Origin: Sphingomonas sp.
Lineage (GTDB): Bacteria; Pseudomonadota; Alphaproteobacteria; Sphingomonadales; Sphingomonadaceae
Direction of reading: 5' to 3'
Assembly (NCBI GenBank): GCA_043778785.1
Contig: JAYWFN010000283.1
Location: 18,060 to 82,059, forward strand
DNA length: 64,000 bases
In this document: positions 39,905-63,737 of the stretch, in pieces
How the letters are laid out: every line of letters begins with the position of its first letter
How positions within the stretch are numbered: the first letter of the stretch is position 1
Position numbers and translations under genes: made by a program
The notes under the pieces: model-generated
The model's database searches: none
What the model was told of the DNA's origin: nothing
The model's input: only the letters and a program-made list of their open reading frames with translations

Positions 39905-39968
39905 ACATCCCCTCTCCCAAGGCTATGTTGTATGCCGTTCAGCGGTTGGCGCAACCGGTAAAAGAAAT

Positions 39969-42790: not shown

Positions 42791-44220
42791 GCCGGGTAGA
42801 AACCGTTGACCACTTTGATTTCAAGAAAGTCGTGAAGTCCAAACGCTCCCCATTCGCGACCATTGCCCGATTGCTTGTAACCGCCAAAGGGAGAACCATA
42901 ATCCTGGCCCGCGCCATTGATGTGGACACTGCCCGCCCGGATTTTGCCCGCAACCCGGCGCGCGCGGTCGATGTCGCCGCTCTGCACATAACCGGCGAGA
43001 CCGTAAGGCGAGTCATTGGCGATGGCGATGGCGTCGGCTTCATCGGTAAATGGGATCATGACCAGCACGGGGCCGAACACCTCCTCCTGCGCAATCGCCA
43101 TCTTGTTGTGGACGCCCGCAAAAACGGTTGGTTTCACATAATAGCCGTGGTCGAACCCGTCTGCCCGTCCGACCCCGCCAGCGACGGGAATAGCACCTTC
43201 ATCGATACCGACCTGAATCAGCCGCTGGATTTTGTCATATTGCAGCTTGCTGACCACGGGACCCAGATGCGGTCCCTTATCCTTTGGATCGCCCAGCTTG
43301 ACTGCGGATGCAACACGCGCGGCAATCGCGACCGCAGCATCATAAGCCGACGCCTCGACCAGCATCCGTGTTGGCGCGTTGCATGACTGACCAGCGTTTT
43401 CGAAACAATGCCGCACACCGCGCTCGACCGCCGCTTCAAGATCGGCATCGGCAAAGACGATATTGGCTGACTTTCCGCCAAGCTCCTGCGACACGCGCTT
43501 GACAGTGTCGGCGGCGGACTTGGCAACCTGTATCCCGGCGCGGGTTGATCCCGTGAAGGAGACCATGTCGACTTCGGCATGGCTCGTCAGGGCATCGCCG
43601 ATTGCTGCCCCCGTGCCGTGCACCATGTTGAATACGCCGGGCGCAAAGCCCGCTTCGTCGATGAATTCGGCAAACAGCTGGGCCGACAGTGGTGCGACTT
43701 CGCTTGGTTTCAGCACCATCGTGCAACCGACGACCAGCGCCGGGCCCACTTTGGCGGCCAGCTGGTTGATCGGCCAGTTCCACGGCGTGATCAGCACGCA
43801 GACACCGATCGGTTCATGGACCAGCGCACTGTTGCCGCCGATTCGGCTGGTCCACGCCATGTCGCGCGCGGCCTTGATCGTTTCCTTCAGGTGCCCCGGC
43901 CCGCATTCGGCCTGCGCATTGAACGACAGGTCATAGGGCGCACCCATTTCGGTCGAAATCGCAATGACCATTTCGTCATAGCGCCGCTCGAATATCGCGA
44001 TCAGTTTTTCGACAAGCGCAATCCGGTCATCCATTGGTAGCGCTGAATAGTCGTCGAATGCCGCCCGCGCCGCACGCACGGCTGCATCGACATCGTCGGG
44101 GCCGCACAGTGCGACCCGCGTGGCAATTTCTTCGGTCGCCGGATTGATGGCGTCGATTGTGCCGGTTGCTGTCAGCGGCAGCGCCCACGCGCCATCGATA
44201 TAGGATTTAAGCCGCTCCAT
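42787..44220 (-). CDS. NAD(P)+-dependent aldehyde dehydrogenase
   Basis: Has ELGGKSANIVF (catalytic Glu region) and FENAGQSCNAPTRMLV (catalytic Cys). I chose the start at MERLKSYIDGAW (44220); the track ORF start (44376) lies inside the MFS gene. Confidence 0.88.
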   Translation of the reverse strand: MERLKSYIDGAWALPLTATGTIDAINPATEEIATRVALCGPDDVDAAVRAARAAFDDYSALPMDDRIALVEKLIAIFERRYDEMVIAISTEMGAPYDLSFNAQAECGPGHLKETIKAARDMAWTSRIGGNSALVHEPIGVCVLITPWNWPINQLAAKVGPALVVGCTMVLKPSEVAPLSAQLFAEFIDEAGFAPGVFNMVHGTGAAIGDALTSHAEVDMVSFTGSTRAGIQVAKSAADTVKRVSQELGGKSANIVFADADLEAAVERGVRHCFENAGQSCNAPTRMLVEASAYDAAVAIAARVASAVKLGDPKDKGPHLGPVVSKLQYDKIQRLIQVGIDEGAIPVAGGVGRADGFDHGYYVKPTVFAGVHNKMAIAQEEVFGPVLVMIPFTDEADAIAIANDSPYGLAGYVQSGDIDRARRVAGKIRAGSVHINGAGQDYGSPFGGYKQSGNGREWGAFGLHDFLEIKVVNGFYPA

Positions 44221-44221
44221 C

Positions 44222-45523
44222 TCAGATATATCCCACCGCGCGTTTTTGGTCCTCGATAATGGTCTTTCCTGCCATCCAGTAATGCCATGCCGCCCAAAAT
44301 CCGGTCGGGGCCAGAAAAAGCAGCGCAAGGCGGAGCGACGCAGCATCCGCGCCACCGGGTCCAGCAAAATAATCACTGAGCCAGCCCACGCCTTGCGGCG
44401 CGATGATCAAGTTGAGCACATTTGCCGACAGCAGCGACACCGCGATGAACATCGCGCGCATCTTGCACGGCGCGAGATTCTGGATGAGCGCCATTGCTGG
44501 CCCTATGTAAAAATAGATCGCCGGAATGAATATCCACAACATCAGCGTCGCCGTCGACAGCGAGTGCGTATAATAAACGATGAACGACGGGATGGTCGCC
44601 GCCGCCGTCACGCCCGCGAGCAGCCAGACAATCCGGCGCGGATCCGTGAACGCCGGTCGCGCCAGCAACCAAGCCGTGAATAGCGACGCCGCGATGCCGG
44701 CAATCAAATGGATCGGGCCGACGACGGCACCTGCTTCGCCGACGCTCAGATTAAAGCTGCGCTGGAGAAATGTGGGTGTAAACCACATCAGACCCCAGCC
44801 CCAGAATGCCGAAACGCCACCGCCCATGACCATGTGAAATGCTGCCTTCTGCTTCCAAAGAAGGCGCATCGTTTCAGCGATAGTCGGTGTCGCATCATGC
44901 ACAACGGCGTCCAGTCGCCCGCGAACTGGTTCTTTGATGGTGAAATACACGATGGCCCCGACAAGCACGCCCGGTATCCCGAGCGCCAAGAACGCCGCCC
45001 GCCACCCGTAGGCATTGGCCACCGCACCTGCCATATCGGCACCGAGCCACGCCCCGATCGGCGCACCGAGCGCAAAAACCGTCATCGCCATCGGCCGGCG
45101 GTTCGCGGGAAAATAGTCGGCCACAATCGAGTTGCATGCAGGCGTTCCACCGGCTTCGCCGACGCCCACACCGATGCGCGCGAGCAACAGCTGCCAATAG
45201 CCTTGCGAAAGCCCGCAAAGCGCGGTCATCGCCGACCAGATGACAAGCGATGCGGCCAGTAAGTTCCGCCGGTTATGCCGATCCGCCACCCATGACAGCG
45301 GAATACCAAGCGTCACGTAAAACAGCGCGAGTGACACACCCGTCAGAAACGCAATGCCGCCGTCGGTCAGTTTGAGTTCGAGCCGGATCGGTTCGAGCAC
45401 TGTCGACATGACATAACGGTCAGCGATATTGATCGTATAGACCAGCATCATGATGATCAGCACATACCAGCGCTCGCCGACCGAGTGGGTCTCGTTGGGG
45501 ATTGTTGCACTCGTCGTCGCCAT
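44222..45523 (-). CDS. MFS transporter
   Basis: 433 aa with about 12 hydrophobic segments. Has ADRHNRRNLL in the loop 2-3 motif position. Confidence 0.8.
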   Translation of the reverse strand: MATTSATIPNETHSVGERWYVLIIMMLVYTINIADRYVMSTVLEPIRLELKLTDGGIAFLTGVSLALFYVTLGIPLSWVADRHNRRNLLAASLVIWSAMTALCGLSQGYWQLLLARIGVGVGEAGGTPACNSIVADYFPANRRPMAMTVFALGAPIGAWLGADMAGAVANAYGWRAAFLALGIPGVLVGAIVYFTIKEPVRGRLDAVVHDATPTIAETMRLLWKQKAAFHMVMGGGVSAFWGWGLMWFTPTFLQRSFNLSVGEAGAVVGPIHLIAGIAASLFTAWLLARPAFTDPRRIVWLLAGVTAAATIPSFIVYYTHSLSTATLMLWIFIPAIYFYIGPAMALIQNLAPCKMRAMFIAVSLLSANVLNLIIAPQGVGWLSDYFAGPGGADAASLRLALLFLAPTGFWAAWHYWMAGKTIIEDQKRAVGYI

Positions 45524-47544: not shown

Positions 47545-47633
47545 TGTTGAATCCCCGTCATCGAGCCCGGGTATAGAGGATATGGAGGCCGAAGTAAGGA
47601 TGCTCGTGCCGTTTCAAATTGGACCGTCTCTGT

Positions 47634-47681
47634 AATGTCCGGCACCGGCGTTCCTGCTGTGGGACGCCGGTGCCGGACATT
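47634..47681 (-). terminator. Perfect 18-bp stem hairpin immediately after the TonB-receptor stop codon (terminator/attenuator or mRNA-stabilising element)
   Basis: AATGTCCGGCACCGGCGT-(12 nt)-ACGCCGGTGCCGGACATT. The stem abuts the TAA at 47682-47684. No clear U-tract follows on the transcribed strand. Confidence 0.5.
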
Positions 47682-50390: not shown

Positions 50391-50745
50391 GATTTTTCCC
50401 CTGATTTCGCCCCTTTTCCCGAGGCGTTATTTTGACGTTAAATAATCGACCGAGAGTGTTTGGATCGATTGGCGCACGCAAATGACCAATTTTGAATGAC
50501 CGGTAAGAAAAATTACCTCTGCCTCAACCTGCCACGGCGCAGAGCTAAGCATATTGTTACAGCGCGATGCCATATCAAAATGCGCCCATGACATCGCATT
50601 TATGCATGGCGCTCTGCGTGTTGCGCGTGTTTTACATATGTCAGATCGTCGTTCGGTACGTCTTATCGCCGTCCGGTCGCGTGCGATATTTTCCCTATGT
50701 GCCGGATGCCCAGCACGCCAACCCGATCACAAAAGAGACGCAACA

Positions 50746-51600
50746 TTGGCTGACCGCAAGTTCATTCTGACCCTCGCCTGCAAAGACAGGCCTGGTATCG
50801 TTTCGCGCGTTTCGACGCACATTTTTGAATCACAGGGAAACATTCAAGACTCAAGCCAGTATCACGATCCCGAGACCAACCAGTTTTTCATGCGTGTCGC
50901 TTTCGGGCTGCCGGCCGATGCGGCAGTGCCCAACGCTGCCTTTGCCCTGCTGGCCAACGACTATGGCATGCACTGGCACATCCGCGAAAGCACCGAGCGT
51001 CAGAAAGTCCTGATTCTCGTCTCCAGATTCGATCACTGCCTCGTCGATTTGCTCTACAGGCTGCGTATCGGCGAACTTCAGATGGACGTGACGGGCATCG
51101 TCTCCAATCATCCGCGCGAGGCGCTCGGCACGCTCGACTTTGGGGCCATCCCCTTCCACCATTTGCCGGTGACCAGAGAGAACAAAGCGGCGCAGGAAGC
51201 GCGAATCTGGGAAATTTTTACGCAAACGGGTTCAGACCTCGCGGTTTTGGCGCGTTACATGCAGATCCTCTCGGACGATCTGTCCGCGAAGTTCAATGGG
51301 CGCTGCATCAACATTCACCACAGCTTCCTGCCGGGCTTCAAGGGCGCAAAACCCTATCACCAAGCGCATCGGCGCGGTGTCAAAGTCATCGGCGCAACGG
51401 CCCATTATGTGACGACCGACCTCGATGAAGGGCCGATCATCGAGCAGGATGTCGAGCGGATCAGCCATGCCGACACCGCCGACGATCTCGTCCGCAAGGG
51501 GCGCGACATCGAACGTCGGGTTTTGTCACGCGCCGTTAGCCTTCACCTCGACGGCCGCGTTATCCTGAACGGCGAACGAACCGTGGTGTTCAGGGATTGA
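50746..51600 (+). CDS. purU: Formyltetrahydrofolate deformylase
   Basis: Has the ACT domain ([19 protein letters not shown]) and formyltransferase core ([20 protein letters not shown]...[17 protein letters not shown]). I infer a TTG start at 50746, which gives a typical ~284-aa length. The upstream in-frame ATG would add an atypical extension. Confidence 0.85.
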
Positions 51601-51616: not shown

Positions 51617-52924
51617 ATGAAGATTGCCCTGATCGTTTTGGCTTTATGCGTTGCCGTGCACCCAGCCAGCGCCCAACCGCCAAGCGTGCCGGGAGCCGAC
51701 GCGCCAGAACTGGCAGCGATGGGGTCCGACGCCGTAGGGTTTCGCACCGTCACGCTGATTCACCCGAACCAGCCGCAGCTTGATGCCGCTGATCCAAAGA
51801 GCGGGACCGTTCCGCTGCATGACCGCAAACTGGTTGTCGATATCTGGTATCCGGCGACAATGGCAAAAGCGGCAAAGCGCGTGACCTATCATGGTTCGCT
51901 CTGGGGCGAACCACCCGGACCGTCCGTTGCTTTCACGCAGGAAGGGCTCGCGGTTTTGAACGCAACGCCAGCGGGCCATGCGCACCCCTTGGTGATCCTC
52001 AGCCACGGCTATAGCAATGCGCCCGCCGTGATGACCTGGCTGACCGAAAACCTCGCATCAAAAGGCTATGTCGTCGCGGGCATCCACCACGAAGACCCTG
52101 ATCCCTATGTCGTTTCGGCGGACAAGCGCGCGGCACCGAATTTCAATCGGCCGCACGACATCGCTTTTGTCACCGCACAGTTGCGGGCGACGTTGGGCGC
52201 GCAGATCGATCCCGAACGCGTCGCGATGATCGGTTATTCGCAAGGCGGCTATGGCGTCCTCACCGCAGGCGGGGCGACGCTTGATCCCGACGGACCGAGC
52301 ATGAGCCAAGTCGCTGGTGGCTGGCTGAAAACATATGCGCGGGGAACGGCCGCCGCTGGCGACATCATCGTGCCCGGCGTGAAAGCCATTGTCGCGCTCG
52401 CGCCGGCGGGTGGTTTGCCGAAAAGCGCGTGGGGCGCTGAAGGACTGGCCGCGATCACTGCGCCGCTGCTCCTTATTCAGGGCGATGCCGACCCTGTTGT
52501 CGATTACAAAACCGGCGCGCTCGCAGTGTTTGACGGCGCGGTGCATGCGGATCGCACCCTGCTGACCTATCGTCAGGCGGGGCACGCCATCGCGCTCAAT
52601 CCCGCCCCGCCGCAAATGCGCGGCAGCCTGTGGGATATGGACTGGTTCGAAGACCCGATCTGGCGACAGGACCGGATCAACGCGATCAATCTGCACTTTA
52701 TCACGGCGTTTCTGGCCGTGCATTTGCGCGGCGAGAATGCCCGCGCGGTGTATCTCAATGTGCCTGTGGAAAATTCGGACGAGGGCACGTGGGCCGCGCC
52801 TGCCGGAACACCGTGGGGCGCGTATAGCCCGGGCGGCGACGGGGTGACATTGTGGAAAGGCTTTCAACGGCGGCATGCGCGGGGGATGACATTGCAGTTT
52901 GGCGGTGCAAAAGCTCAGCGTTAG
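51617..52924 (+). CDS. Secreted alpha/beta-hydrolase (dienelactone hydrolase / PAF-acetylhydrolase-like)
   Basis: 435 aa. Has the signal peptide MKIALIVLALCVAVHPASA and the nucleophile elbow IGYSQGG. Confidence 0.65.
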   Translation: MKIALIVLALCVAVHPASAQPPSVPGADAPELAAMGSDAVGFRTVTLIHPNQPQLDAADPKSGTVPLHDRKLVVDIWYPATMAKAAKRVTYHGSLWGEPPGPSVAFTQEGLAVLNATPAGHAHPLVILSHGYSNAPAVMTWLTENLASKGYVVAGIHHEDPDPYVVSADKRAAPNFNRPHDIAFVTAQLRATLGAQIDPERVAMIGYSQGGYGVLTAGGATLDPDGPSMSQVAGGWLKTYARGTAAAGDIIVPGVKAIVALAPAGGLPKSAWGAEGLAAITAPLLLIQGDADPVVDYKTGALAVFDGAVHADRTLLTYRQAGHAIALNPAPPQMRGSLWDMDWFEDPIWRQDRINAINLHFITAFLAVHLRGENARAVYLNVPVENSDEGTWAAPAGTPWGAYSPGGDGVTLWKGFQRRHARGMTLQFGGAKAQR

Positions 52925-53372: not shown

Positions 53373-53801
53373 CTAGGGCAAAAGCCTCAAGCCAAGGTCG
53401 GTGTAGAACCTGAGCAAATATCCATCGTGGTCCGCGACGACGAACTGGCGGTTGCCGCGCTCACGCCCATCCTGAATATACCAGCGCTCTTCAAGGGGGA
53501 TGAGCATCGAATACCCCATGGCCACGGCGCGAGCATAACGGGTGGCCACATTCGCAACCCGTATTTGAAGGTTGATACCGCGACCGAATGGCGGGTCTAA
53601 CGGGGCAGTCCTGAACCGACGGCCCGGGCCCTCGGCTTGCTGTAACATGAGGTGTGCGCCTTCGCAGTTGAGGTAGGCAAACCCTTCCTCCGCACGTTCG
53701 AACAGCAGCTCGAAGCCGAACAGGTCGATGTAGAGCCCGACCGCCTTCGCCAGGTCGCTTACGTCCAACTCTGGAATGAGGTGCGGTGACTCTGGCTGCA
53801 T
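53373..53801 (-). CDS. VOC-family (glyoxalase/bleomycin-resistance-like) protein
   Basis: 142 aa. LDVSDLAKAVGLYIDLFGFELLF...GAHLML...FVVADHDGYLLRF is the beta-alpha-beta-beta-beta module pattern. Confidence 0.7.
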   Translation of the reverse strand: MQPESPHLIPELDVSDLAKAVGLYIDLFGFELLFERAEEGFAYLNCEGAHLMLQQAEGPGRRFRTAPLDPPFGRGINLQIRVANVATRYARAVAMGYSMLIPLEERWYIQDGRERGNRQFVVADHDGYLLRFYTDLGLRLLP

Positions 53802-53929: not shown

Positions 53930-54445
53930 CTATCCTTCCAAAGTCCCGACTGCCTGTTCCCAAAAATGGATCAGGCCTGCGCTGAAGCTGGCGGGGACAT
54001 AGACGTCGCACGTGTCGTCACTGACCACGTGCAAGCGCACGGCGACATGGTCGATGATCGTGGCGGCGCTGGTGCCAGGGGCAAAGGCGGGGGACTCGGC
54101 ATCGAATACGCCGCCTTCCATCAGGAGCGTTCGCCAGCTCGCGCCCGAGAGCTGGACGCGGACAATGCCGCCGCCGATCGCGGTGATGGCACCGTCTTCG
54201 CCAAGGACGGCGGGCAGCGCGGTGGTGTCGCCCTCAACCAGCCAGACCGTGGGTTCGTAGCGGATCAGGCGGAGCGCATCGGTGCCGCCCGACGTGCCGA
54301 GGCGCGGCAATGCAATGCCCATCGCGGCTTCGAACCGTTTGGCGACTCTACGAGGATTGCTCCAGATTTCGAGCGCGTGGAGCGGCGCGGCGGGCCGCAG
54401 AGTGATCGTCACCTCAGTCACGATAACGCGCCCCCACACTGTCAT
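53930..54445 (-). CDS. soxG: Sarcosine oxidase gamma subunit
   Basis: It is the last gene of the sox block. TITLRPAAPLHALEIW...IRYEPTVWLVEGD is family-typical. The start is ambiguous: ATG 54445 or GTG 54421, both overlapping the soxA 3' end. Confidence 0.75.
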   Translation of the reverse strand: MTVWGRVIVTEVTITLRPAAPLHALEIWSNPRRVAKRFEAAMGIALPRLGTSGGTDALRLIRYEPTVWLVEGDTTALPAVLGEDGAITAIGGGIVRVQLSGASWRTLLMEGGVFDAESPAFAPGTSAATIIDHVAVRLHVVSDDTCDVYVPASFSAGLIHFWEQAVGTLEG

Positions 54446-57155
54446 AGAAATGCGGGGCGACCACGCGGACACGCGCCGATTGCCCGCGCGTCGGCGATGT
54501 CGCGATCAGTTCCTCGCCCGCCCGCGCGAAACCGCCTTCGAGTTGAGCGAGCGCGATAGCGCCACCGTCGATGATGCGGAACGCAGCGGCGCTGACATGG
54601 CCGCAGGGTAACTGGCCGTCGCGGGTGATCAGCATCGCGCCTTCGGGGATGATGCCTTCAGTCGCTTCGAGCCCGACGAGTTGACGACGCCCGCTCGCCG
54701 ACAGCGCAGGACGCGACAAACCCGATGCGCCGATGAATCCACCCGCTTTGTTCAGCATTTTATCGAGCGCGAGATCATGCGGGGTCAACCGCCCGTCAAT
54801 TTCGCCACCGACGACCAGATGCCCTTTCTCGATACGAAGGAATTCCATAGCTTCCATGCCGTAAAGGCACCCGCCATTTGCCGTGACCGCCTGTTCGAGT
54901 GCCGCCCACACGGGCGTGGCCTGTGTTGCCTCGACGTAGATTTCGAACGCGCGCTCGCCGCTGTAGCTGGCCGCAAGGACAAGCACCGGCGCGCCGGCGA
55001 TTGTCGCCGGGACAGTCGACATATGGCGCGGCGGTTCTTCGCCGGTCACCGCCGCCAGCGCCGCCTTGGCATTCGGCCCCGCCACGGCAATTCCGGCATA
55101 ATGCTCCTGAACATTGACCGCCGAGACGCGCAGATGCGGACAAAGATACTGGCGGACGTAGGAGATATGCGTCGCCATCCGGTCCGCGCCGCCCGTTGAA
55201 CTGGTGAGCAGATAACGGTTGTCGCCGACGCGCCAGACGGTGCCATCATCGAACATGAACCCGTCTTCGCGCAGCATGAAGGTATAACGCCCGCGCCCGA
55301 CGGCGAGCTTGTTGACTGTCGTCGCGCAAATGATTTCGAGGAAAGCCGCTGCATCGGGGCCGCTCACCTCAAACTTGGCGAGCGTCGAGACGTCGGTCAT
55401 CCCGACATTGCTGCGCACAGCGCGGGCTTCGCGCAGCGCCGCCTCGGCCAGCGTTTCGGTCCCCTGCGGATAAGCGCGCGGACGGAACCAGTAACCGAGC
55501 GGCTGCCAGATCGGGCCATGCACCTGATGCGCGTCATAGAGCGCGAGCCGCCGGACCGGTGCGCCGCCATCCTTTGCGCCTGCGCCAGCGAGCAGGCCCA
55601 TCGTGACGGGCGTGTATGGCGGACGGAAGGTCGTCAGCCCGGCCTCGGGAATTGCGACGCCCTGCTTCTCGGCAAGTCGGCCAAGTGCCGCCATATTGCT
55701 CAGCTTGCCCTGATCGGTCGCCATGCCGAGCGTCGTGTAGCGCTTCAGATGCTCGACCGAGCGATACCCCTCTGCCCATGCCAGATCGACATCGGCGAGC
55801 GTCACGTCATTCTGGAAATCGATGAAGGATTTGCGCGCGTCGCCCGCAGGAGGCGTGGTAAAGACCGGATCGGGCGCCGCCGCCCCGCCAATCGTCTGCA
55901 CCGATTGTAGCGATGCACCGGCGACGAAAGCCTGTGCCGCGTCATCCCAATCGAGCGCGCCGCCCGCTTGCATGTGGAGGTGGACGACAGGTGTAAAACC
56001 GCCCGAGACTGCGAGCAAATCTGCAGCCCAGCTTTTGGTTTCGGTCCCGACCTTCGCGGTGACGCTTGCCAGATGGTGGCGCGTGCCTTTGGTCGAAAGC
56101 GGGACGGCATTATTGAGGACATTGAACTGTCGCCGGGCAGACGCGCCCGCAGGCGATGGCCGCGCGTCGAGGATCGCTACGATCCCCGCCCCGGCTTCGA
56201 CAAGCGCATGCGCAGTGCGATAGCCATCGTCGTTGTTCGTCGCGATCACCACGCGGGTGCCGGGCAGCACACCGAACCGCTGAACATAGGTGCGCGCGGC
56301 CTGGGCGAGCATGACACCGGGACGGTCGTTGTGGGCAAACGCAACGGGGCGTTCGATGCTGCCGGTCGCGAGGATCACGTGCCCCGCCCGGACATGCCAC
56401 AGGCGCTGGGCAACACCGTGCGGTGGGACTTGCCCGGGCTCGACGATCCGTTCGGTGAGCGTCAGGAAATTATGATCCCAATAGCCCGATGCCGTCGTGC
56501 GCATCAGGATGCGGCCCTCGGCGGCACGGATACGCGCAGCCGTGGCGTCGATCCACGCGGCGTCGAGTTCCTGCGGATCGCGGATCAGCGACGCGCCGAG
56601 AATGCGGTCCTGCTCGACAAGGATCACGCGCTTGCCTGCCTCGGCTGCTTCGAGTGCGGCTGCCAGACCGGCAGGGCCGCCGCCGACCACGAGCACATCG
56701 CAAAACGCGGCGCGCTGGGCAAAGTGATCGGGGTCCGCCTCGGTCGGCGCTTTACCCAATCCGGCGGCTTTGCGGATGAAATATTCGTAGATCATCCAGC
56801 GTTTGGCAGGGCCGAAAAAAGTTTTGTAGTAAAAACCGGCAGATAAGAAGCGCGACGCAAGACCGAATATTGCGCCCGCATCGAAGGCCAGATTGGGCCA
56901 GCGGTTCTGGCTTTTGGCGACCAACCCCTCATAGATAAATACATCGGTTGTGCGGGTATTGGGTTCGCTGCGACCGCCGACGCCCACCGTGACGAGCGCA
57001 TTGGGCTCCTCGATCCCCGCCGTCATGATTCCGCGCGGACGATGATATTTGAAGCTGCGCCCGACAAGGCCAATGCCGTTGCGCAAGAGCGCTGCGGCGA
57101 GCGTGTCGCCTTCGCGCGCCTGATAGGATTTGCCGTCAAACGTGAACCCGATCAT
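54414..57155 (-). CDS. soxA: Sarcosine oxidase alpha subunit
   Basis: Has FTFDGKSYQAREGDTLAAALLRNG, the NAD/FAD fold DVLVVGGGPAGLAAALEAA, and a C-terminal GcvT-like folate domain. The ATG at 57155 forms an ATGA overlap with soxD. Confidence 0.9.
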   Translation of the reverse strand: MIGFTFDGKSYQAREGDTLAAALLRNGIGLVGRSFKYHRPRGIMTAGIEEPNALVTVGVGGRSEPNTRTTDVFIYEGLVAKSQNRWPNLAFDAGAIFGLASRFLSAGFYYKTFFGPAKRWMIYEYFIRKAAGLGKAPTEADPDHFAQRAAFCDVLVVGGGPAGLAAALEAAEAGKRVILVEQDRILGASLIRDPQELDAAWIDATAARIRAAEGRILMRTTASGYWDHNFLTLTERIVEPGQVPPHGVAQRLWHVRAGHVILATGSIERPVAFAHNDRPGVMLAQAARTYVQRFGVLPGTRVVIATNNDDGYRTAHALVEAGAGIVAILDARPSPAGASARRQFNVLNNAVPLSTKGTRHHLASVTAKVGTETKSWAADLLAVSGGFTPVVHLHMQAGGALDWDDAAQAFVAGASLQSVQTIGGAAAPDPVFTTPPAGDARKSFIDFQNDVTLADVDLAWAEGYRSVEHLKRYTTLGMATDQGKLSNMAALGRLAEKQGVAIPEAGLTTFRPPYTPVTMGLLAGAGAKDGGAPVRRLALYDAHQVHGPIWQPLGYWFRPRAYPQGTETLAEAALREARAVRSNVGMTDVSTLAKFEVSGPDAAAFLEIICATTVNKLAVGRGRYTFMLREDGFMFDDGTVWRVGDNRYLLTSSTGGADRMATHISYVRQYLCPHLRVSAVNVQEHYAGIAVAGPNAKAALAAVTGEEPPRHMSTVPATIAGAPVLVLAASYSGERAFEIYVEATQATPVWAALEQAVTANGGCLYGMEAMEFLRIEKGHLVVGGEIDGRLTPHDLALDKMLNKAGGFIGASGLSRPALSASGRRQLVGLEATEGIIPEGAMLITRDGQLPCGHVSAAAFRIIDGGAIALAQLEGGFARAGEELIATSPTRGQSARVRVVAPHFYDSVGARYRD

Positions 57156-57415
57156 GGCAGCGCTTCCGGCCCGACGGCGCGGACAGCTTCGATGACATGC
57201 GTGACCCGGTGGCGCGTCAGGACCATCCACGCGCGGCAGCCGAATGTGTGGCGCCAGATCTCGTCATCCAGCCCGCGCGGGTTGGCACGGCTGAACAATA
57301 TGGCCATGGTGTCGTCGGACGACGCATCGAGCGTCACGACTGAATCCACCGTGCGTTCGTACGTGAACTCACCTTGCGCGCGCGGGCCGCAATGGGGGCA
57401 GGTGATCTGCATCAT
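57152..57415 (-). CDS. soxD: Sarcosine oxidase delta subunit
   Basis: 87 aa. MMQITCPHCGPRAQGEFTYE ... WRHTFGCRAWM matches the Cys3His zinc pattern of SoxD. Confidence 0.88.
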   Translation of the reverse strand: MMQITCPHCGPRAQGEFTYERTVDSVVTLDASSDDTMAILFSRANPRGLDDEIWRHTFGCRAWMVLTRHRVTHVIEAVRAVGPEALP

Positions 57416-57430
57416 GTCAGCGCCCCGCCT

Positions 57431-58687
57431 TCATCGACTATTCGGCATCGGGCCGGTGCCGGTTTCGTCGATGGTGGCACCACTGGTAAAGCGATCCAGC
57501 GCAAAAGGCGCGTTCAAGCCGTGCGGCTTTCCCGTTGCGAGCGTGTGGGCATAGGTCCAGCCCGACGCCGGTGTCGCCTTGAACCCGCCATAGCACCAGC
57601 CGCCGTTGAGATAGAGATTCCGGACGGGGGTTTCGCCAATGATCGGCGCGCCGTCAAAACTCATGTCAGTTACGCCTGACCAAGTCCGCACCATGCGCAG
57701 GCGCGAGAGCGCGGGCACGAGCATGACTCCTTGCGCAATGGCCTGTTCCATCACCACCGGATTGCCGCGCTGGGCATAGCTCGGCCAGTTGTCGGGATCG
57801 CCGCCAAAGACGATGCCGCCCTTGTCCGACTGGCTGATGTAACAATGGACCGATTGCGACATGATCACGCTGTTGATCATCGGCTTGACGCCTTCGGTGA
57901 CCATCGCCTGCAAGGTTTGCGATTCCACCGGCAGCTTGAGCCCGGCAAGCCCCGCGACATGGCCGCTGTTCCCCGCCACGCAAATGCCGACGCGACCCGC
58001 GCCGATCCGCCCGCGCGTGGTTTCAACCCCGACGACCGCATCACCATCGCGCACAAATCCGGTGACTTCGCATTTCTGGATGATGTCGACGCCCAGACTG
58101 TCGGCTGCACGCGCATAGCCCCAGGCGACAGCATCATGACGCGCCGTCCCGCCCCGCCGCTGGATCAGCCCCCCCTCAATCGGGAAACGCGCGGTGCGCG
58201 ACATGTCGAGCAGCGGTTCGAGTTTTGCGACCTCATCGCGCGTCATCAGGTCGGCGTCGATCCCGCTGCACCGCATTGCATCACCGCGCTCGGCAAGTTT
58301 GGTCATGTCGGCATCCGAGTGCCCGAGAAACACCGCCCCGCGCGGGCTGAACATGACGTTGTAGTTCAGTTCGTCGCTGAGGTTTTCCCACAGCTTCAAG
58401 CCGAATTCGAACAATGTGTGGAGCGGTGCCAGGCGGTAATTCGACCGGACAATCGTCGTGTTGCGCCCGGTGTTGCCGCCGCCGATCCAGCCCTTTTCCA
58501 GCACTGCGATGTTGCGGATGCCGTGGACCTTGGCGAGGTAATAAGCCGTGGCAAGGCCATGTCCGCCACCGCCGATGATGATGATGTCGTAACTGGCCCT
58601 TGATTCGGGGTCACGCCACGCGGGTTGCCAATGCTTGTTGCCCCCGAATGCGCCGCGGATCAGCCCAAGTGCCGAATAGCGGTTCAT
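57431..58687 (-). CDS. soxB: Sarcosine oxidase beta subunit
   Basis: MNRYSALGLIRGAFGGNKHWQPAW...YDIIIIGGGGHGLATAYYLAK. The ATG at 58687 forms an ATGA overlap with the upstream gene. Confidence 0.9.
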   Translation of the reverse strand: MNRYSALGLIRGAFGGNKHWQPAWRDPESRASYDIIIIGGGGHGLATAYYLAKVHGIRNIAVLEKGWIGGGNTGRNTTIVRSNYRLAPLHTLFEFGLKLWENLSDELNYNVMFSPRGAVFLGHSDADMTKLAERGDAMRCSGIDADLMTRDEVAKLEPLLDMSRTARFPIEGGLIQRRGGTARHDAVAWGYARAADSLGVDIIQKCEVTGFVRDGDAVVGVETTRGRIGAGRVGICVAGNSGHVAGLAGLKLPVESQTLQAMVTEGVKPMINSVIMSQSVHCYISQSDKGGIVFGGDPDNWPSYAQRGNPVVMEQAIAQGVMLVPALSRLRMVRTWSGVTDMSFDGAPIIGETPVRNLYLNGGWCYGGFKATPASGWTYAHTLATGKPHGLNAPFALDRFTSGATIDETGTGPMPNSR

Positions 58688-59820
58688 GAAATCGGCAGCC
58701 ACCCGCGCTTTTCACGCCAATCGGCCTCAAGTCCGGCGAAACGCGAAAGCCCGAGAATGCCGATGTCAGCGAACGAACATGCCCCGTCGAGTACAAGGTC
58801 GCGGATGGCATGGCCCGATGCGGGCGACAGACCAAAGCCGACACCCGACATTGTTGCCACGACAACATTGTCGGGGCTGGCCAGCCGGTCGATGATCGGA
58901 CGACCATCGGGCGTGTTCTCGATGACCCCGGCCCAGCTGCGAATGACGTTCAGATGCGCGGCTTTTGGCAGAAGTTCGGCAAGGCGCGACGCGAGATTGC
59001 GCATCAGCGGCGTCGAGGGCCGCGCGGCTGGCCCTGCCTCGTCAATATCAATCCATTCATGCGGACCGCCACCATATGCCAGATTGCCCCTTTGCGTCTG
59101 GCGACCGTAAAGTTTGTGCCCGTCGACGCCGCCAATCGGCATCATCGGCGCGGGTTCGGTGATGATCATTTCGGCGCGCGCGGCGGCAAGGGGGATGTCA
59201 ACGCCGAGCTGGGCGGTCAGCTTGTCGGTCTGCGGCCCTGCGGCGATCACCAGCGAATCGCATCCATATGTCGCCTGGGCAGTGTTGACCGCCGTCACTT
59301 TGCCGCCTGCCGTCTCGAACCCTGTCACCGCGCTATGCTGGACAATCGTCCCGCCGAGATCCTGCAGCGCCCAGGCATAGGCCTGCACGGTGCGTTGCGG
59401 ATTGGCATGGCCGCCGAACCGGTAATGCACACCGCCGAAACATGTATCCCCGGCCAGCGGCACGGCTTCCTGCACCTGTTTGACGTCGAGAAGATCGACC
59501 GGATGACCGAGACGGTTGTGCCGTTCGGCAACGAAGCGATATTGCTCCCACTGCCGTTCGGTCATGGCAATGATGATGCGTTCGCGGCAGTGTTCGGTCG
59601 GATAGCCGAGGAGATCGTCCATCTGCGGCCACAACCGGTGCTCTTCGTCAAACAGCGGACTTTGATAATGCGAAGCACCGCCGCCGTTGCGACCCGATGC
59701 TTCCCATCCGACAATGCCTTTATCGAGCACAGTGACTTTCACGCCCGAGCGCGCGAGCCACCAGCCCGCGCTAAGCCCGGTTACGCCGCCACCAACAATG
59801 ACCACTTCCGCGCCGCTCAT
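58684..59820 (-). CDS. FAD-dependent oxidoreductase (DAO family), opine oxidase subunit B / HcnC-like
   Basis: 378 aa. Has MSGAEVVIVGGGVTGLSAGWWLARSGVKVTVLDKG...EASGRNGGG. ATGA overlaps at both ends. Confidence 0.75.
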   Translation of the reverse strand: MSGAEVVIVGGGVTGLSAGWWLARSGVKVTVLDKGIVGWEASGRNGGGASHYQSPLFDEEHRLWPQMDDLLGYPTEHCRERIIIAMTERQWEQYRFVAERHNRLGHPVDLLDVKQVQEAVPLAGDTCFGGVHYRFGGHANPQRTVQAYAWALQDLGGTIVQHSAVTGFETAGGKVTAVNTAQATYGCDSLVIAAGPQTDKLTAQLGVDIPLAAARAEMIITEPAPMMPIGGVDGHKLYGRQTQRGNLAYGGGPHEWIDIDEAGPAARPSTPLMRNLASRLAELLPKAAHLNVIRSWAGVIENTPDGRPIIDRLASPDNVVVATMSGVGFGLSPASGHAIRDLVLDGACSFADIGILGLSRFAGLEADWREKRGWLPIS

Positions 59821-61280
59821 TCGTACATGCCGGTATAGAGCATCTGGCGGTGTTCATCCTCATGCACGGTGCCAAGATCTTGCACCGGCACCCACTGCGT
59901 TGGAATGCCAAACCAGACGTCCCAAGCCACCGTCATCGCGTCGCTTTCATGCCAGTCAGCGAGGATCTTGAGCGGCAGCGGGCGAACCGGCGCGCGGTGG
60001 CTGGCAAGCGGGATCGTGCCGAATGGCTGATCTGCTTCGATCGCGAGCAACATCGCCACTTGATCGCGGCAGCGGCGCCCCTGACACACACCCATCCCGG
60101 CACGCGTCAGGCGCTTGATCTGGTCGGGATGCGGCGGGCCATCGGCAATCAGCGTGTCGAGCGACCGCGCACACATCGCCGGTGGCCGCGCGAGATAATT
60201 TGGCGGCTGGACACCGATAAGGTCAGCACGGGTAACCTCTTCGCACTGGCAGATGATCGTGTCGGGCGCACTGATGGCGGCGAGCGACCGCATCCAGTCC
60301 ATCCGATAGGCGATATGGTCAAAGCCCGTGTCGGTCAGCCCGGCGCAATCACCGATGGCAGTCACAGTCGGTTCGCCTGCGGGGATGTAGCCGCCGCGGG
60401 TCGCATGCAAGGCGCGCGGGCCGTGCATCGCATCGACCAGCTCGATGGCAGGGACAAGGCCAATCGCAACACAGATGCAGTCGCAGACAATTTCTTCGCC
60501 CGACGACAATATGGCACTTTCGACGCCATCGATTCCGCCCTGCGCAATAGTGATCGTCTGCCCGCAGCGAATTTTTATCCCTGCTCCCTCTACTCTGGCG
60601 ATCAGATCGGCACTGCCCTGCGGTGCGTCTCGCACTTCGATCAGCCCGGCAACTTCAATGCCGCGCTCATGCGCCAGCAGCGCCGTTTCCAGCGCCAGAT
60701 CATGCGATCCCAGCACCAGCACCCGCCGCCCCGCAAACGCATCGTAGCGCGTCAGCAACATTTGCAGCGCCGCCGCGCCCATTACGCCGGGCTGGTTCCA
60801 GCCCGGAAAGGCCATCGCCAGATCACGCGCGCCGGTCGCCAGCACCAGTCTGTCGAAACCGACCAGCCACGACCGCTCGGCATCGGCCAGTCCGACGACT
60901 TGTTCGGGCAAGCTCGCGACGCCCGGCCCGTTGCGATAGACACCCCATGCCGAGGTGCCGAGCAGCAGTTCGACACCGGCCTCCATGGCCGTTTCCAGCG
61001 CGGGCATCGACATGAAAATCGCTTCGAGCATCCGGTCGCTATTCTGTGTCGCTGCCGTCATCCGGCCTCCAAAATAGAGCGGGACGTCATTGCCCATCAG
61101 CGCGCCCGACACCGGGTTTTCATCGACCAGCAGCACTGATGCACCGGTTTTGGCAGCGTCGATGGCCGCAGCGACACCGCTCGGTCCCGCACCGATGACG
61201 ACGAGATCATAATGCGCTTCCGCCGCACTGCGTGTGCCGTTGATGGCGCAAACATCGGTTCCCGTGAAATTCAGTTCCAT
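59817..61280 (-). CDS. FAD/NAD(P)-binding oxidoreductase with BFD-like [2Fe-2S] domain, opine oxidase subunit A / HcnB-like
   Basis: Has YDLVVIGAGPSGVAAAIDAAKTG, ICQCEEVTRADLIG and TRAGMGVCQGRRC. The ATG at 61280 overlaps the upstream TGA (TGATG); a GTG at 61283 is also possible. Confidence 0.75.
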   Translation of the reverse strand: MELNFTGTDVCAINGTRSAAEAHYDLVVIGAGPSGVAAAIDAAKTGASVLLVDENPVSGALMGNDVPLYFGGRMTAATQNSDRMLEAIFMSMPALETAMEAGVELLLGTSAWGVYRNGPGVASLPEQVVGLADAERSWLVGFDRLVLATGARDLAMAFPGWNQPGVMGAAALQMLLTRYDAFAGRRVLVLGSHDLALETALLAHERGIEVAGLIEVRDAPQGSADLIARVEGAGIKIRCGQTITIAQGGIDGVESAILSSGEEIVCDCICVAIGLVPAIELVDAMHGPRALHATRGGYIPAGEPTVTAIGDCAGLTDTGFDHIAYRMDWMRSLAAISAPDTIICQCEEVTRADLIGVQPPNYLARPPAMCARSLDTLIADGPPHPDQIKRLTRAGMGVCQGRRCRDQVAMLLAIEADQPFGTIPLASHRAPVRPLPLKILADWHESDAMTVAWDVWFGIPTQWVPVQDLGTVHEDEHRQMLYTGMYE

Positions 61281-62539
61281 CACACTGCATCCAACGCCTG
61301 AGTGAGATCCGCAATAAGATCGTCGACATGTTCGAGCCCGACCGACAACCGGATCGTGCCGCCGGTAATCCCGCCTGCCCGCCGCTGTTCGGGGGCGACG
61401 GCATAATGAGTGGTGCTCGCCGAATGACAGATCAAAGTCTCCGACCCGCCAAGACTGACGGCCATTTTCATCAGCTGCAACTTATCGAGCATCCGGAATG
61501 CTTCGGCCTCGCCGCCGTGGAGGTGGAACGAAAAGGTCGATCCCGCCGCACGGCACTGCTGGTCATAAACCGCGCGTTGCCGCGTCCCCTCGGCAAGGAA
61601 ACCGAGATAGGTGACGCCCGCAACTTTAGGATGATCGCGCAGATATTCGGCAACGCTGCGCGCATTGCTCATTGCCCGTTCCGACCGGACATGGACGGAC
61701 TCAAGCGAGCGCATCACGAGCCATGACGTATAGGGATCGAGGTGATTGCCCCATGTCGTGCGCTGTGTGCGGAGCAGATCGATCAAGTCCTTGCGCCCGC
61801 TGATCCCGCCCGCCAGCAAATCGCTGTGCCCCCCGCAATATTTGGTGAGCGAGGTCATGCAAAGATCAACGCCAAGGTCGAGCGGACGTTGCGCAAACGG
61901 TCCGAGCAGTGTGTTGTCGACGACGACATGCGGGCGACGCCCCTGCTGCGCGCCGACTTCGTCCGCGATCCGCACCATCAACGCCAGATCGACAATCGCC
62001 GCCGTCGGGTTGGCCGGGGTTTCGGCAATGATCAGCGCGAGCGGCCCCTGCGCCATTGCCGCTTTCGCCGCCGACCGGACATCATCCTCGTCAGTGCCAT
62101 CGATATAGGCCGTCGCGTGCGATCCGAATTGCGGCATGATGCTGTTGTAAAGCATGTCTACGCCGCCATAGATTGGCCGTCCGTGGATGACGCTGTCACC
62201 GGGCCGGACAAAGGCGAGCGCAATCGAAGAGTGCGCCGCCATGCCGCTGCTGTAAGCGACAGCTGCTTCGCCACCATCAATTGCGGCCAGTCGCGCCTCA
62301 AGAAAATCGAGACCCGGATGGCCCAGCCGCGAATAGATATGATGACTTTGGCCGACGGCCGGGCCGGTGCCGTCGAAAAAGGCTTCGTGAACGTCCTTGG
62401 CTGCTTGCGCCGAGGGATAGACGAACGTCGAGGTCATGAAAATCGGTGGCTTTACCGAACCCATGCCCATTGCAGGGTCATAGCCGTGGCTGACGGCGAG
62501 GGTTTCGGGGCGCATGCCCTTTGGCGGATCAATCGACAT
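61280..62539 (-). CDS. Cys/Met-metabolism PLP-dependent enzyme (cystathionine gamma-synthase / methionine gamma-lyase family)
   Basis: Has PPIFMTSTFVY, YSRLGHPGLDFLEARLAAIDGGEAAVAYSSGMAA and the PLP-lysine motif SLTKYCGGHSD. I chose the start at MSIDPPKG (62539), which overlaps the upstream gene by 11 nt. Confidence 0.8.
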   Translation of the reverse strand: MSIDPPKGMRPETLAVSHGYDPAMGMGSVKPPIFMTSTFVYPSAQAAKDVHEAFFDGTGPAVGQSHHIYSRLGHPGLDFLEARLAAIDGGEAAVAYSSGMAAHSSIALAFVRPGDSVIHGRPIYGGVDMLYNSIMPQFGSHATAYIDGTDEDDVRSAAKAAMAQGPLALIIAETPANPTAAIVDLALMVRIADEVGAQQGRRPHVVVDNTLLGPFAQRPLDLGVDLCMTSLTKYCGGHSDLLAGGISGRKDLIDLLRTQRTTWGNHLDPYTSWLVMRSLESVHVRSERAMSNARSVAEYLRDHPKVAGVTYLGFLAEGTRQRAVYDQQCRAAGSTFSFHLHGGEAEAFRMLDKLQLMKMAVSLGGSETLICHSASTTHYAVAPEQRRAGGITGGTIRLSVGLEHVDDLIADLTQALDAV

Positions 62540-63737
62540 TGGCATCAAGATAAGCGCGGCCCTTGTCGCAATACCAGTCGACAAAGCGCTGCGCGAGCAT
62601 TTCGGCATCCTGCGAATAGGGACCGGGCGTATAGCCAAGGCTGTTCACACCAAGCTGGTTATTCTCGGCCAGCGCTTTGTCTTGCAAATTGGTCCGCGTC
62701 CAAAGCTCGGTCAGCGTGTCGACGTCATAATCGACGCCTTCGACGGCGTCCTTGTGGACAAGCCATTTGCCGATGACGTGCGTTTCGTTGGGGCCGACGG
62801 GCATCGCGCTGAACATGAACACATGGTCGCCGGTCGCATGGGCAAAGCAATGGGGGTCCAGCGCCCAGCGCATCGACCCGATGTCACCGTTATTGGCGTC
62901 GCACATCAGCTTGTCGACGACGCGTTTTCCGTCCATAGATATCGACACACTGCCTTCGTTCAGGCGAAAGCGGGCAAGTTGCCACCAGCTTCCTTCAACA
63001 GGGTCAAGCTCGAGATCATGTTCGGCCATCGTGGTTTCGAATGTTTTGGCAAGAACGTCCTCGCCGAAGTCGAAATGCTTCGACATGCCGACCGGAAACG
63101 TCGCAGCGAGTTCGGGGTGCCCGGTGCCGCAATGATAACATTCGCGGGCGTTTTCCATCACCAGCTTCCAGTTGGCGTTTTCAACCAGCACGCTTTCGAA
63201 CGCAACTTTCGCATCCTTGAAGTTGTGCGGTTCGGCAAAGGCCGTCATGCGGGCCCGAAACTCGTCGAATTCGGGTGGGCTGTCGGCAAGGCAGATAAAC
63301 ATCACACCCGCCACGATTTCCAGCGCAACCGACTTCAGACCATGATCGGATTTCTCAAAATCATCGGGCATGCGCCCGGCGGAAAAAAGCGATCCGTCAA
63401 GATTGTAGGTCCAGCGATGATAGGGACAGACCAGCTTGGGCACTGATCCACTCCCCGGTGTGCACAGCATCGATCCGCGGTGTCGGCAGCTGTTGTGGAA
63501 AGCGCGGATGTCGCCGGCCCGGTCACGAACAATGATCACCGGCCATTTGCCGATCATCATCGCCAGATAACTGCCCGGTTTGGGCAATTCGACTTCGAAA
63601 CCAGCCATCAGCCAGCTGGTCGCGTAGATCGCATCCATATCGAATGCGAAAGCGGCCGGATCATTATAGAGCGCTTGCGGCAAACTATGCCCCGCCCGAC
63701 GCGCATCAAAACTGTCGCGAATCTGGCCTAAATTCAT
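62529..63737 (-). CDS. Rieske [2Fe-2S] non-heme-iron oxygenase, alpha-subunit-type (paralog 2); first gene of the long sox-containing operon
   Basis: 402 aa. Has CRHRGSMLC...CPYHRWTY and ECYHCGTGHPEL, the same architecture as 31755-33005. Confidence 0.85.
   Translation of the reverse strand: MNLGQIRDSFDARRAGHSLPQALYNDPAAFAFDMDAIYATSWLMAGFEVELPKPGSYLAMMIGKWPVIIVRDRAGDIRAFHNSCRHRGSMLCTPGSGSVPKLVCPYHRWTYNLDGSLFSAGRMPDDFEKSDHGLKSVALEIVAGVMFICLADSPPEFDEFRARMTAFAEPHNFKDAKVAFESVLVENANWKLVMENARECYHCGTGHPELAATFPVGMSKHFDFGEDVLAKTFETTMAEHDLELDPVEGSWWQLARFRLNEGSVSISMDGKRVVDKLMCDANNGDIGSMRWALDPHCFAHATGDHVFMFSAMPVGPNETHVIGKWLVHKDAVEGVDYDVDTLTELWTRTNLQDKALAENNQLGVNSLGYTPGPYSQDAEMLAQRFVDWYCDKGRAYLDANVD

Follow-up and report, generated by a model that had tools for sequence, protein, structure and literature searches.

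The subject of this analysis is an eight-gene block on the minus strand of a 64,000-nucleotide stretch of a Sphingomonas sp. contig (JAYWFN010000283.1, positions 18,060 to 82,059; hereafter the window). Running from position 63737 to 53930, the block encodes an oxygenase of the Rieske non-heme-iron type, a pyridoxal 5'-phosphate (PLP) enzyme, a pair of flavoproteins resembling the opine oxidase subunits OoxA and OoxB, and four proteins resembling the sarcosine oxidase subunits SoxB, SoxD, SoxA, and SoxG. Judged from its genes, it probably encodes a betaine-type N-demethylation pathway with a PLP-dependent finishing step, and not an opine-like or sulfur-linked pathway or one that relies on a canonical sarcosine oxidase. 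An earlier reading of the same DNA, made from the sequence and without database searches (the original prediction), is thereby upheld in part. More specifically, the block may be a single catabolic operon for a quaternary alpha-amino-acid betaine other than glycine betaine. The candidate substrate is N,N,N-trimethylhomoserine (homoserine betaine), either free or derived from diacylglyceryl-N,N,N-trimethylhomoserine (DGTS), a betaine lipid, a reading to which we give a probability of roughly 0.4.

Is the block really one unit? All eight open reading frames (ORFs) are intact, with starts, stops, order, overlaps, and gap as originally predicted, and their Pfam and NCBIfam domain content bears out the family-level identities. 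The Rieske and PLP genes overlap by 11 nucleotides (nt), the PLP and OoxA-like genes by 1 nt (GTGATGG), and the OoxA-like/OoxB-like and OoxB-like/soxB junctions by 4 nt each (ATGA). A 15-nt gap separates soxB from soxD, soxD and soxA overlap by 4 nt (ATGA), and soxA and soxG overlap by 32 nt if soxG starts at the ATG at 54445 or by 8 nt if it starts at the GTG at 54421. These overlapping junctions support the proposed translational coupling. Matches to consensus promoter- or terminator-like sequences within the block are at or below the number in shuffled-sequence controls; they give no sign of internal signals that would split it into separately regulated parts, although such counts say little either way. 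The divergent GcvA-type LysR gene can also be confirmed, in that its N terminus (…INRRWLPLNALRAFDAVGQHLS) aligns with the N termini of the divergent LysR proteins of Sphingorhabdus lacus and of a related locus, L009. The sequencing runs that contain the operon sequence are metagenomic DNA runs only, and near-identical DNA is absent from plasmids, where only partial matches (71-75%) were found.

Conservation makes the same case. A survey with one genome per species returned 80 loci with a PLP protein 81-97% identical to that of the window; the PLP gene is among the best conserved of the block. All but one of these loci (79/80) are labeled Sphingomonadales or merely Pseudomonadota, and metagenomes of glacier streams, lakes, and sediments are the source of many of them. 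Close relatives of the PLP protein number in the thousands, those with names being from Sphingorhabdus. When the window proteins were compared with the loci by tblastn, all eight genes were found in the same order in 44 of the 45 Sphingomonadales species-representative loci with sufficient flank, the sole exception being a locus in which the OoxA-like gene matches in two pieces. The operon is kept in at least about 60 species-level freshwater Sphingomonadales genomes (glacier-fed streams, lakes, and sediments). Its surroundings are conserved too, with the divergent LysR gene in 62 related loci, an NAD-type formate dehydrogenase cluster and FdhD upstream in 29 to 40, and the convergent esterase gene downstream in 33 of the 45 full loci. 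The arrangement is therefore far beyond chance, and since gene order is kept wherever the contig is long enough, together with conserved neighbors, the block is a real, selected unit. As a side observation, the Rieske gene of one metagenome-assembled genome (MAG; JANORM010000023, L006/L017, 8775-10001) is called as two ORFs of 127 and 213 amino acids, which suggests a frameshift or an assembly error.

The first four genes (Rieske-PLP-OoxA-OoxB, hereafter the module) preserve their order in differing arrangements across lineages. Novosphingobium capsulatum carries them without sox genes and behind a divergent LysR gene, with products 63, 72, 55, and 72% identical to those of the window; a CocE/NonD hydrolase gene follows, and sox and purU lie 72 kb distant. 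More distant genomes were reached by a search seeded with the N. capsulatum OoxA-like protein. Phenylobacterium has a convergent sox cluster and purU after the four genes and a gene of the window's esterase family upstream of them; in P. montanum, the four genes lie with a TonB receptor, the esterase, and proteins of the fatty-acid-hydroxylase and lipid-desaturase families. Novosphingobium nitrogenifigens (L094) has a patatin lipase gene (12700-14151) set between those for the OoxB-like protein and SoxB, with glpD and glpK (1-2636) and a TonB receptor gene upstream and a major facilitator superfamily (MFS) transporter gene after soxG. At the equivalent place, the metagenomic relative L097 has a glpR-like gene (DeoR-type regulator), glpD, and glpK (1113-5030). 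In both loci, a conserved protein of 267-269 amino acids without a family match is encoded in the interval from the glycerol genes to the LysR gene; in L094 it sits after the TonB receptor. Further relatives retain the module with no sox genes nearby. Finally, plasmids of Paracoccus and Ancylobacter carry a trio of Rieske and flavoprotein genes with a GbcB-type reductase, a GlxA-family regulator, betaine ATP-binding cassette (ABC) transporters, and purU, and have no PLP gene.

What kind of substrate would the first enzyme accept? The Rieske protein has both expected metal sites, the Rieske CxH…CxxH as CRHRGS…CPYHRW and the iron site E-C-x-H-C-x3-H as ECYHCGTGH. Its nearest solved structures are the proline betaine (stachydrine) demethylase Stc2 (3VCA), an unnamed Ruegeria protein (3N0Q), and 4QUP, at E values of about 1e-106, followed by CntA at 3e-33. 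By these resemblances it is assigned to the group V (quaternary-amine) Rieske oxygenases. The demethylase role originally predicted is plausible at this level and does not extend to orthology with the glycine betaine enzyme GbcA, which we reject. On the GbcA/BmoA equivalog model NF058607 (cutoff, 670 bits), the window protein scores 445.1 bits, below Stc2 (493.8), the Paracoccus protein taken as Pden_4897 (528.5), and its Ancylobacter counterpart (541.1). The CntA structure paper describes a position in the pocket, two residues ahead of the bridging Glu, that is Tyr or Phe in carnitine/choline-type enzymes and Asn in GbcA, BmoA, and Stc2 (group Vb) (PMC7948474). The window protein has Ala there (ENARECYHC), and module-type copies have either Ala (52 of 85) or Gly (the other 33); Stc2, 3N0Q, and the GbcA-like proteins of Paracoccus and Ancylobacter have Asn. 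There is also no GbcB neighbor. No gene for a Rieske-partner reductase or ferredoxin was seen in the window or in the related sphingomonad loci, and because of this the OoxA-like subunit, with its NAD(P)/FAD fold and 2Fe-2S motif, could conceivably pass electrons from the second step to the Rieske oxygenase of the first.

Since Stc2 is the closest structurally characterized relative, the proline/hydroxyproline betaine pathway of Sinorhizobium and Paracoccus (Stc2; HpbB1C1/HpbB2C2 with HpbA) deserves comparison. Demethylation of proline betaine by a Rieske enzyme and a flavoprotein is established (PMC3950512). As in the window, a LysR gene adjoins the Rieske gene, a betaine other than glycine betaine is demethylated, and the free amino acid is handed to a dedicated enzyme. 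Proline betaine, however, has two methyl groups and needs no Sox step, the end enzyme is PutA and not a PLP lyase, and the Stc2 pocket residue is Asn, whereas that of the window protein is Ala.

The flavoprotein pair had been labeled OoxA/OoxB-like, and the label is sound only at the superfamily level. The two-subunit combination of Pyr_redox_2-type and DAO-type proteins seen in opine oxidase is present, and the large subunit combines the NAD(P)/FAD fold with a cluster motif of the form CxC…CxxC (ICQCEEVT…GVCQGRRC), with a faint Fer2_BFD match in one orthologue. It is a relative, not a close one, of the Sox proteins: the OoxA-like subunit reaches 131 bits on the soxA subfamily model (cutoff, 1164) and the OoxB-like subunit 118 bits on that of soxB (cutoff, 529). 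The OoxB-like protein has 1Y56_B and the beta subunit of heterotetrameric sarcosine oxidase as its nearest structures. The OoxA-like protein is 55% identical to that of N. capsulatum, 44% to that of Ancylobacter, and 39% to that of Paracoccus. Specific kinship with the OoxA of Ti plasmids did not emerge. A tblastn search with the large subunit against PLSDB (72,556 plasmids), a collection that holds many Ti plasmids, returned 31 records at E<=1e-20, among which no Ti- or Ri-plasmid opine oxidase appeared. Agrobacterium is represented by a single record (A. leguminum), whose 25.5% identity does not exceed that of SoxA alpha subunits; the OoxA-like protein is 25-27% identical to SoxA N-terminal halves.

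These results bear on a very unlikely rival, the opine-like C-N cleavage of the original prediction, in which the pair would oxidatively cleave a non-methyl secondary-amine C-N bond (for instance, of an N-carboxyalkyl or aminocarboxypropyl compound such as an opine or a nicotianamine-like metabolite), the PLP enzyme would take off an amine or thioether linked at the gamma position, and an N-methylglycine-type fragment would be left to the Sox proteins. The Pyr_redox_2 plus DAO architecture is common to opine oxidases, HcnBC, and LhpBEF, which agrees with such a role. OoxAB/NoxAB, HcnBC, LhpBEF, and the archaeal proline dehydrogenase (1Y56) all oxidize C-N bonds of secondary or tertiary amines with subunits of these two types, but the window pair resembles them only at the superfamily level and is without a separate small 2Fe-2S subunit. 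PLP enzymes of the gamma family can also take nitrogen or sulfur leaving groups (PMC9533460, discussion). Against this stand the missing Ti/Ri-plasmid match at that threshold, a Rieske partner in the quaternary-ammonium demethylase group, and the absence of any opine-type transporter or opine-related context from the loci inspected. The folate-linked Sox proteins and the one-carbon genes nearby also favor N-methyl chemistry, and a serial demethylase is the better fit for the pair. A more remote relative of the pair (33% identical) lies directly after etfB-etfA on Rhizobium etli Mim1 plasmid pRetMIM1e (L091, 7166-11615), near genes for electron transfer flavoprotein (ETF)-ubiquinone oxidoreductase, gamma-aminobutyrate transaminase, and succinate-semialdehyde dehydrogenase. 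This relative suggests an ETF-linked amine dehydrogenase, and the region looks like another uncharacterized N-alkylamine pathway.

The Sox-like proteins have both hallmarks of sarcosine oxidase, the soxB-D-A-G gene order and a folate-binding GcvT domain in the alpha subunit, and SoxB passes its family cutoff (646.2 bits on TIGR01373; cutoff, 529.45). The other three fall short, SoxA with 1020.8 bits on TIGR01372 (cutoff, 1164), SoxD with 75.4 on TIGR01374 (cutoff, 116.5), and SoxG with 48.9 on TIGR01375 (cutoff, 143.95), and five further module-associated SoxA copies all lie below 1164, at 996 to 1092 bits. Could the low scores simply reflect lineage divergence? That explanation is weakened by a metagenomic contig (L099; JGI 3300082540) on which a second soxBDAG set (17317-21464) lies tail-to-tail with the operon-type sox genes. 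The second copy passes, with 1386.7 bits for SoxA and 129.6 for SoxD, and the operon-type SoxA beside it scores 996. Identity between the two groups is 41-43% for SoxA and about 50% for SoxB, while the SoxB of the window is 69-91% identical to other module-linked copies. Because a canonical set adjoins the operon at this distance in sequence, the operon Sox proteins are best assigned to a paralogous enzyme, not an orthologue, that exists alongside ordinary sarcosine oxidase. The original assumption that they are a canonical sarcosine oxidase thus has to be given up.

Would a familiar pathway nevertheless account for these genes? The strongest rival, unlikely as we judge it, is catabolism of choline lipids and glycine betaine by lineage-divergent enzymes. 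Lipases would yield glycerophosphocholine and choline from phosphatidylcholine, choline would be oxidized to glycine betaine, the Rieske oxygenase would form dimethylglycine, the flavoprotein pair would replace DgcAB or DMGDH in forming sarcosine, and SoxBDAG would form glycine, with the PLP enzyme an accessory or a passenger. The plasmid trios of Paracoccus and Ancylobacter lend it weight through their adjoining genes, as described above, and the OoxB-like protein shares 62% identity with its Paracoccus counterpart. The Paracoccus Rieske/reductase pair is taken, on its gene content and order, to be Pden_4897-96, the deletion of which in Paracoccus denitrificans has a share in the loss of growth on glycine betaine. 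The same bacterium has sox genes (Pden_4906-4909). In the window and in Phenylobacterium-like loci, genes resembling choline dehydrogenase (a glucose-methanol-choline [GMC] oxidoreductase, 578.7 bits against a cutoff of 605) and betaine aldehyde dehydrogenase (BADH) are nearby, and SoxB, as mentioned, is above its cutoff. This rival, however, leaves no role for a PLP gene that is translationally coupled and conserved at 81-97%. The Rieske protein is farther from GbcA than Stc2 is and has Ala or Gly at the Asn pocket position, SoxA, SoxD, and SoxG are subthreshold with canonical sox genes beside the operon in L099, and no glycerophosphodiester phosphodiesterase was seen in the loci. The deletion of Pden_4896-97 on its own causes only a modest glycine betaine defect. 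No paper on the Paracoccus flavoprotein pair (Pden_4894/4895) was found in the full-text literature, whose coverage leaves out most subscription journals.

The GbcAB-DgcAB/DMGDH-SoxBDAG system itself (Pseudomonas; BmoAB in Chromohalobacter) resembles the proposed pathway in its three serial oxidative N-demethylations, carried out by a Rieske enzyme, a flavoprotein, and a folate-linked heterotetrameric oxidase, and in the purU and formaldehyde/formate genes nearby. It differs in that the window Rieske protein fails the GbcA model, has Ala for Asn in the pocket, and comes without GbcB, a two-subunit flavoprotein of SoxA/SoxB-like type stands in the middle in place of DgcAB or DMGDH, the sox genes belong to a separate paralogue group, and a PLP enzyme of the gamma family is built in. 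The Paracoccus cluster, with the similar one of Ancylobacter, shares with the window the trio of Rieske, OoxA-like, and OoxB-like genes (46, 39, and 62% identity) and is unlike it in its GbcB-type reductase, GlxA-family regulator, betaine ABC transporter, Asn pocket, and lack of a PLP gene.

The PLP enzyme passes the NF005455 model (PRK07049; 511.5 bits, cutoff 504), and alignment to the methionine gamma-lyase (MGL) structure 4MKK and to 5IJG shows all catalytic residues of the gamma family to be present, namely, the Schiff-base Lys (LTKYCGGHSD), the Asp of DNT, the Tyr of YGG, and the Arg of IRLSVGLE. The nearest structures, 5IJG and 7SWH, bear only generic family names in PDB, and in the literature on them and on PRK07049 a single preprint mentioning PRK07049 turned up. 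The name methionine gamma-lyase, used by JGI, is rejected on a score of 345.9 bits on TIGR01328 (cutoff, 549.7) and on a missing Cys: Gly (in Tyr-Gly-Gly) occupies the position of Cys115 of Citrobacter freundii MGL, an active-site mark of that enzyme. Homologues about 47% identical on Rhizobium and Bradyrhizobium plasmids lie in unrelated contexts without a functional hint. A close kinship with canavanine gamma-lyase finds no support in the homologue of Rhizobium WSM1325 (47%), which is WP_012755216, not the characterized WP_012555980, and whose context is unrelated. The canavanine pathway is still instructive chemically. In it, a PLP enzyme that the authors assign to the family of cystathionine gamma-lyase cleaves the O-substituted homoserine canavanine to homoserine (PMC9533460), a precedent for the last step proposed here, in which a gamma O-linked substituent would leave a homoserine skeleton. 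Canavanine is an unrelated substrate without N-methyl groups, and the parallel drawn here is a chemical one.

How might the pieces work together? Three demethylase types (for quaternary, tertiary, and secondary amines) joined to a gamma-family PLP enzyme are the set that would be required for a trimethylated amino acid carrying a leaving group at the gamma position. In the proposed scheme, an esterase/lipase outside the cytoplasm would deacylate a lipid-bound or esterified form, and the soluble head group would then enter the cell, perhaps through the TonB receptors and the MFS transporter, which are candidates for this task. The Rieske oxygenase would hydroxylate one N-methyl of the trimethylammonium group, giving formaldehyde and a dimethyl amino acid. 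The OoxA/B-like flavoprotein would take off the second methyl group, and the SoxBDAG-like enzyme would transfer the third to tetrahydrofolate (as methylene-tetrahydrofolate). PurU and the neighboring formate dehydrogenase could clear the one-carbon units. Because PLP enzymes act through a Schiff base, for which the substrate needs a primary amine, this step could come only after all N-methyls are gone. The PLP enzyme would eliminate or replace the gamma substituent to give 2-oxobutyrate and ammonia (or homoserine) and the leaving group. The substrate may be homoserine betaine in free form or the glyceryl ether that deacylation of DGTS leaves behind, and in the latter case glycerol would be the leaving group.

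Why DGTS? DGTS, or its free head group homoserine betaine, is the one abundant natural compound known to unite glycerol and acyl esters with an N,N,N-trimethyl alpha-amino acid that bears a gamma O-substituent. Under phosphorus shortage, betaine lipids, DGTS among them, take the place of phospholipids in many algae of fresh and marine waters, in fungi, and in some bacteria. Cold-adapted freshwater algae produce DGTS when phosphorus is limiting (PMC11771548), which matches the habitats of the operon genomes, a circumstantial agreement. Taken with the esterase, TonB, MFS, and glycerol-gene neighbors, the operon might even accomplish bacterial mineralization of the DGTS head group or homoserine betaine to glycerol, 2-oxobutyrate, and ammonia, an extension that we regard as tentative and rather doubtful. 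The full-text literature, again without most subscription journals, gave neither a described pathway with this arrangement nor one for bacterial catabolism of DGTS or homoserine betaine, in keeping with the earlier remark that no characterized pathway has this combination. The idea that the block serves as a single catabolic unit for a betaine-like amino acid with N-methyl groups is supported. The suggestion that the substrate might contain sulfur is not, given a PLP enzyme without the MGL Cys and recurring lipase and glycerol neighbors that point to a lipid-derived betaine.

The window's esterase gene encodes a protein with a hydrophobic, signal-peptide-like N terminus (MKIALIVLALCVAVHPASA) and weak similarity to PDB esterases and cutinases; copies 47-53% identical adjoin the module in Phenylobacterium. 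It is probably an accessory enzyme that deacylates the substrate. The hydrolases beside the module differ by lineage and include proteins of PAF-AH/PETase-like, patatin, and CocE/NonD type as well as a weak PF00756 match. They matter for a further rival, quite unlikely in our estimate, in which another betaine with a beta or gamma leaving group (sulfur-containing, of serine/threonine type, or an undescribed freshwater metabolite) is serially demethylated and the lipase and glycerol neighbors are coincidental. The operon itself, after all, specifies only three demethylase types and a PF01053 enzyme, enzymes of that family carry out both beta and gamma eliminations, and the neighbors differ between lineages. 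That hydrolases of several families recur in separate lineages, with a patatin inside one operon, argues against coincidence, and this rival also has against it that no locus has a sulfur-metabolism gene and that the MGL-type Cys is missing.

Several points weigh against homoserine betaine or DGTS as the substrate. It is deduced solely from gene content and neighbors, and an alkoxide such as glycerol is a poor leaving group in gamma-elimination. The esterase families are broad and their lipid specificity is putative, and glp genes flank the module in just two related loci, both Novosphingobium-type. A tblastn search with the Paracoccus reductase found no GbcB-type reductase in the window or in 91 other loci, including all 80 sphingomonad loci. 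The close Paracoccus copy of the OoxB-like protein, as mentioned, is plasmid borne and lies with the GlxA-family regulator and the glycine-betaine-linked pair taken as Pden_4896-97. The PLP gene, finally, is missing in the relatives L095, Paracoccus, and Ancylobacter, which implies that the flavoprotein pair is not tied to a gamma-substituted substrate.

Table 1. Operon genes and associated features of the window
Feature	Positions	Strand	Evidence or remark
Rieske non-heme-iron oxygenase, predicted quaternary-amine (group V) type	62529..63737	-	Pfam Rieske and Ring_hydroxyl_A
PLP enzyme, Cys/Met (gamma-family) fold, PRK07049 subfamily	61280..62539	-	PF01053, 326.8 bits
OoxA-like large flavoprotein subunit	59817..61280	-	Pyr_redox_2, 101 bits; SO_alpha_A3, 22.7 bits
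OoxB-like small DAO-fold flavoprotein subunit	58684..59820	-	DAO, 207 bits
SoxB-like beta subunit	57431..58687	-	TIGR01373, 646.2 bits
SoxD-like delta subunit	57152..57415	-	PF04267, 70 bits; TIGR01374, 75.4 bits
SoxA-like alpha subunit, 913 amino acids, short form	54414..57155	-	Fer2_4, SO_alpha_A3, GCV_T, GCV_T_C
SoxG-like gamma subunit; start uncertain (ATG 54445 or GTG 54421)	53930..54445	-	PF04268, 24.7 bits
GcvA-type LysR, 5' end; start approximate; runs past window edge at 64000	63893..64000	+	
Esterase/lipase-like alpha/beta hydrolase, convergent to operon	51617..52924	+	PETase/PAF-AH_p_II/Hydrolase_4 matches
purU (formyltetrahydrofolate deformylase)	50554..51600	+	True start inside ORF; family match ~50740-51600
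MFS transporter, possible pathway importer, weaker association	44222..45523	-	

Other neighbors would supply one-carbon and transport functions. PurU scores above the cutoffs of both of its models (396.6 bits on NF004684, cutoff 223; 334.5 bits on TIGR00655, cutoff 286), and purU also flanks the module or the sox genes in L002, L010, L081, L096, and L098. One-carbon genes nearby also comprise FdsGBA(C)D and FdhD, to which S. lacus and one related MAG add an ADH_N/ADH_zinc_N dehydrogenase. TonB receptors and orthologous MFS transporters recur beside the module, the window MFS protein being 56-75% identical to those encoded directly after soxG in N. nitrogenifigens, L097, and N. capsulatum.

The window holds a second demethylase cluster on the minus strand (31755-37871), consisting of another Rieske gene (31755-33005) and two genes for fusions of FAD and GcvT domains of about 810 amino acids, of the dimethylglycine/sarcosine dehydrogenase type. 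This second Rieske protein scores 274 bits on the GbcA model and has Phe in the pocket (ENFFEC), the carnitine/choline-type signature; orthologues (67% identity) adjoin the module in Phenylobacterium L096 and L098. Convergent with it, an omega-aminotransferase gene (AptA equivalog, 719 bits, cutoff 500) and a nitroreductase-family gene on the plus strand (29674-31735) end 20 nt from the second Rieske stop; an omega-transaminase would suit a demethylated omega-amino acid. Next to the cluster, positions 38028-45523 encode a protein resembling 3-hydroxyisobutyrate dehydrogenase (HIBADH) and tartronate-semialdehyde reductase, a GcvA-type LysR, the GMC oxidoreductase mentioned above, an enolase-superfamily dehydratase, the BADH-like aldehyde dehydrogenase, and the MFS transporter. 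The region may be functionally linked with that of the operon, because genes 74-81% identical to those for the HIBADH-like protein, LysR, and GMC oxidoreductase adjoin the Rieske-PLP module in Phenylobacterium-like L096, L098, and L100.

Between the MFS gene and purU (45535-50390) lie genes for a 669-amino-acid protein with tetratricopeptide-repeat (TPR) and sulfotransferase domains and for a TonB-dependent receptor. Homologues of both are found upstream of the operon in L082, L084, and L085, and a TPR-sulfotransferase protein (40% identity) is encoded directly beside the module LysR gene in L101. A gene of the glyoxalase/bleomycin-resistance fold (vicinal oxygen chelate family; 53373-53801) follows soxG on the minus strand after 128 nt and is without a counterpart in the related loci, even in two whose operon is 97-98% identical.

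What does the operon mean for the bacteria that carry it? If the DGTS reading is true, it would provide a bacterial route for the betaine-lipid head group, a large pool of carbon and nitrogen. Whatever the substrate, the annotation of these genes in many genomes, where they now go by the names "aromatic ring-hydroxylating dioxygenase," "methionine gamma-lyase," "thioredoxin reductase," and "sarcosine oxidase," would need correcting to recognize a Rieske subgroup whose pocket has Ala or Gly where others have Asn or Tyr, a SoxAB-like pair in the place of DgcAB or DMGDH, and a Sox paralogue distinct from sarcosine oxidase.

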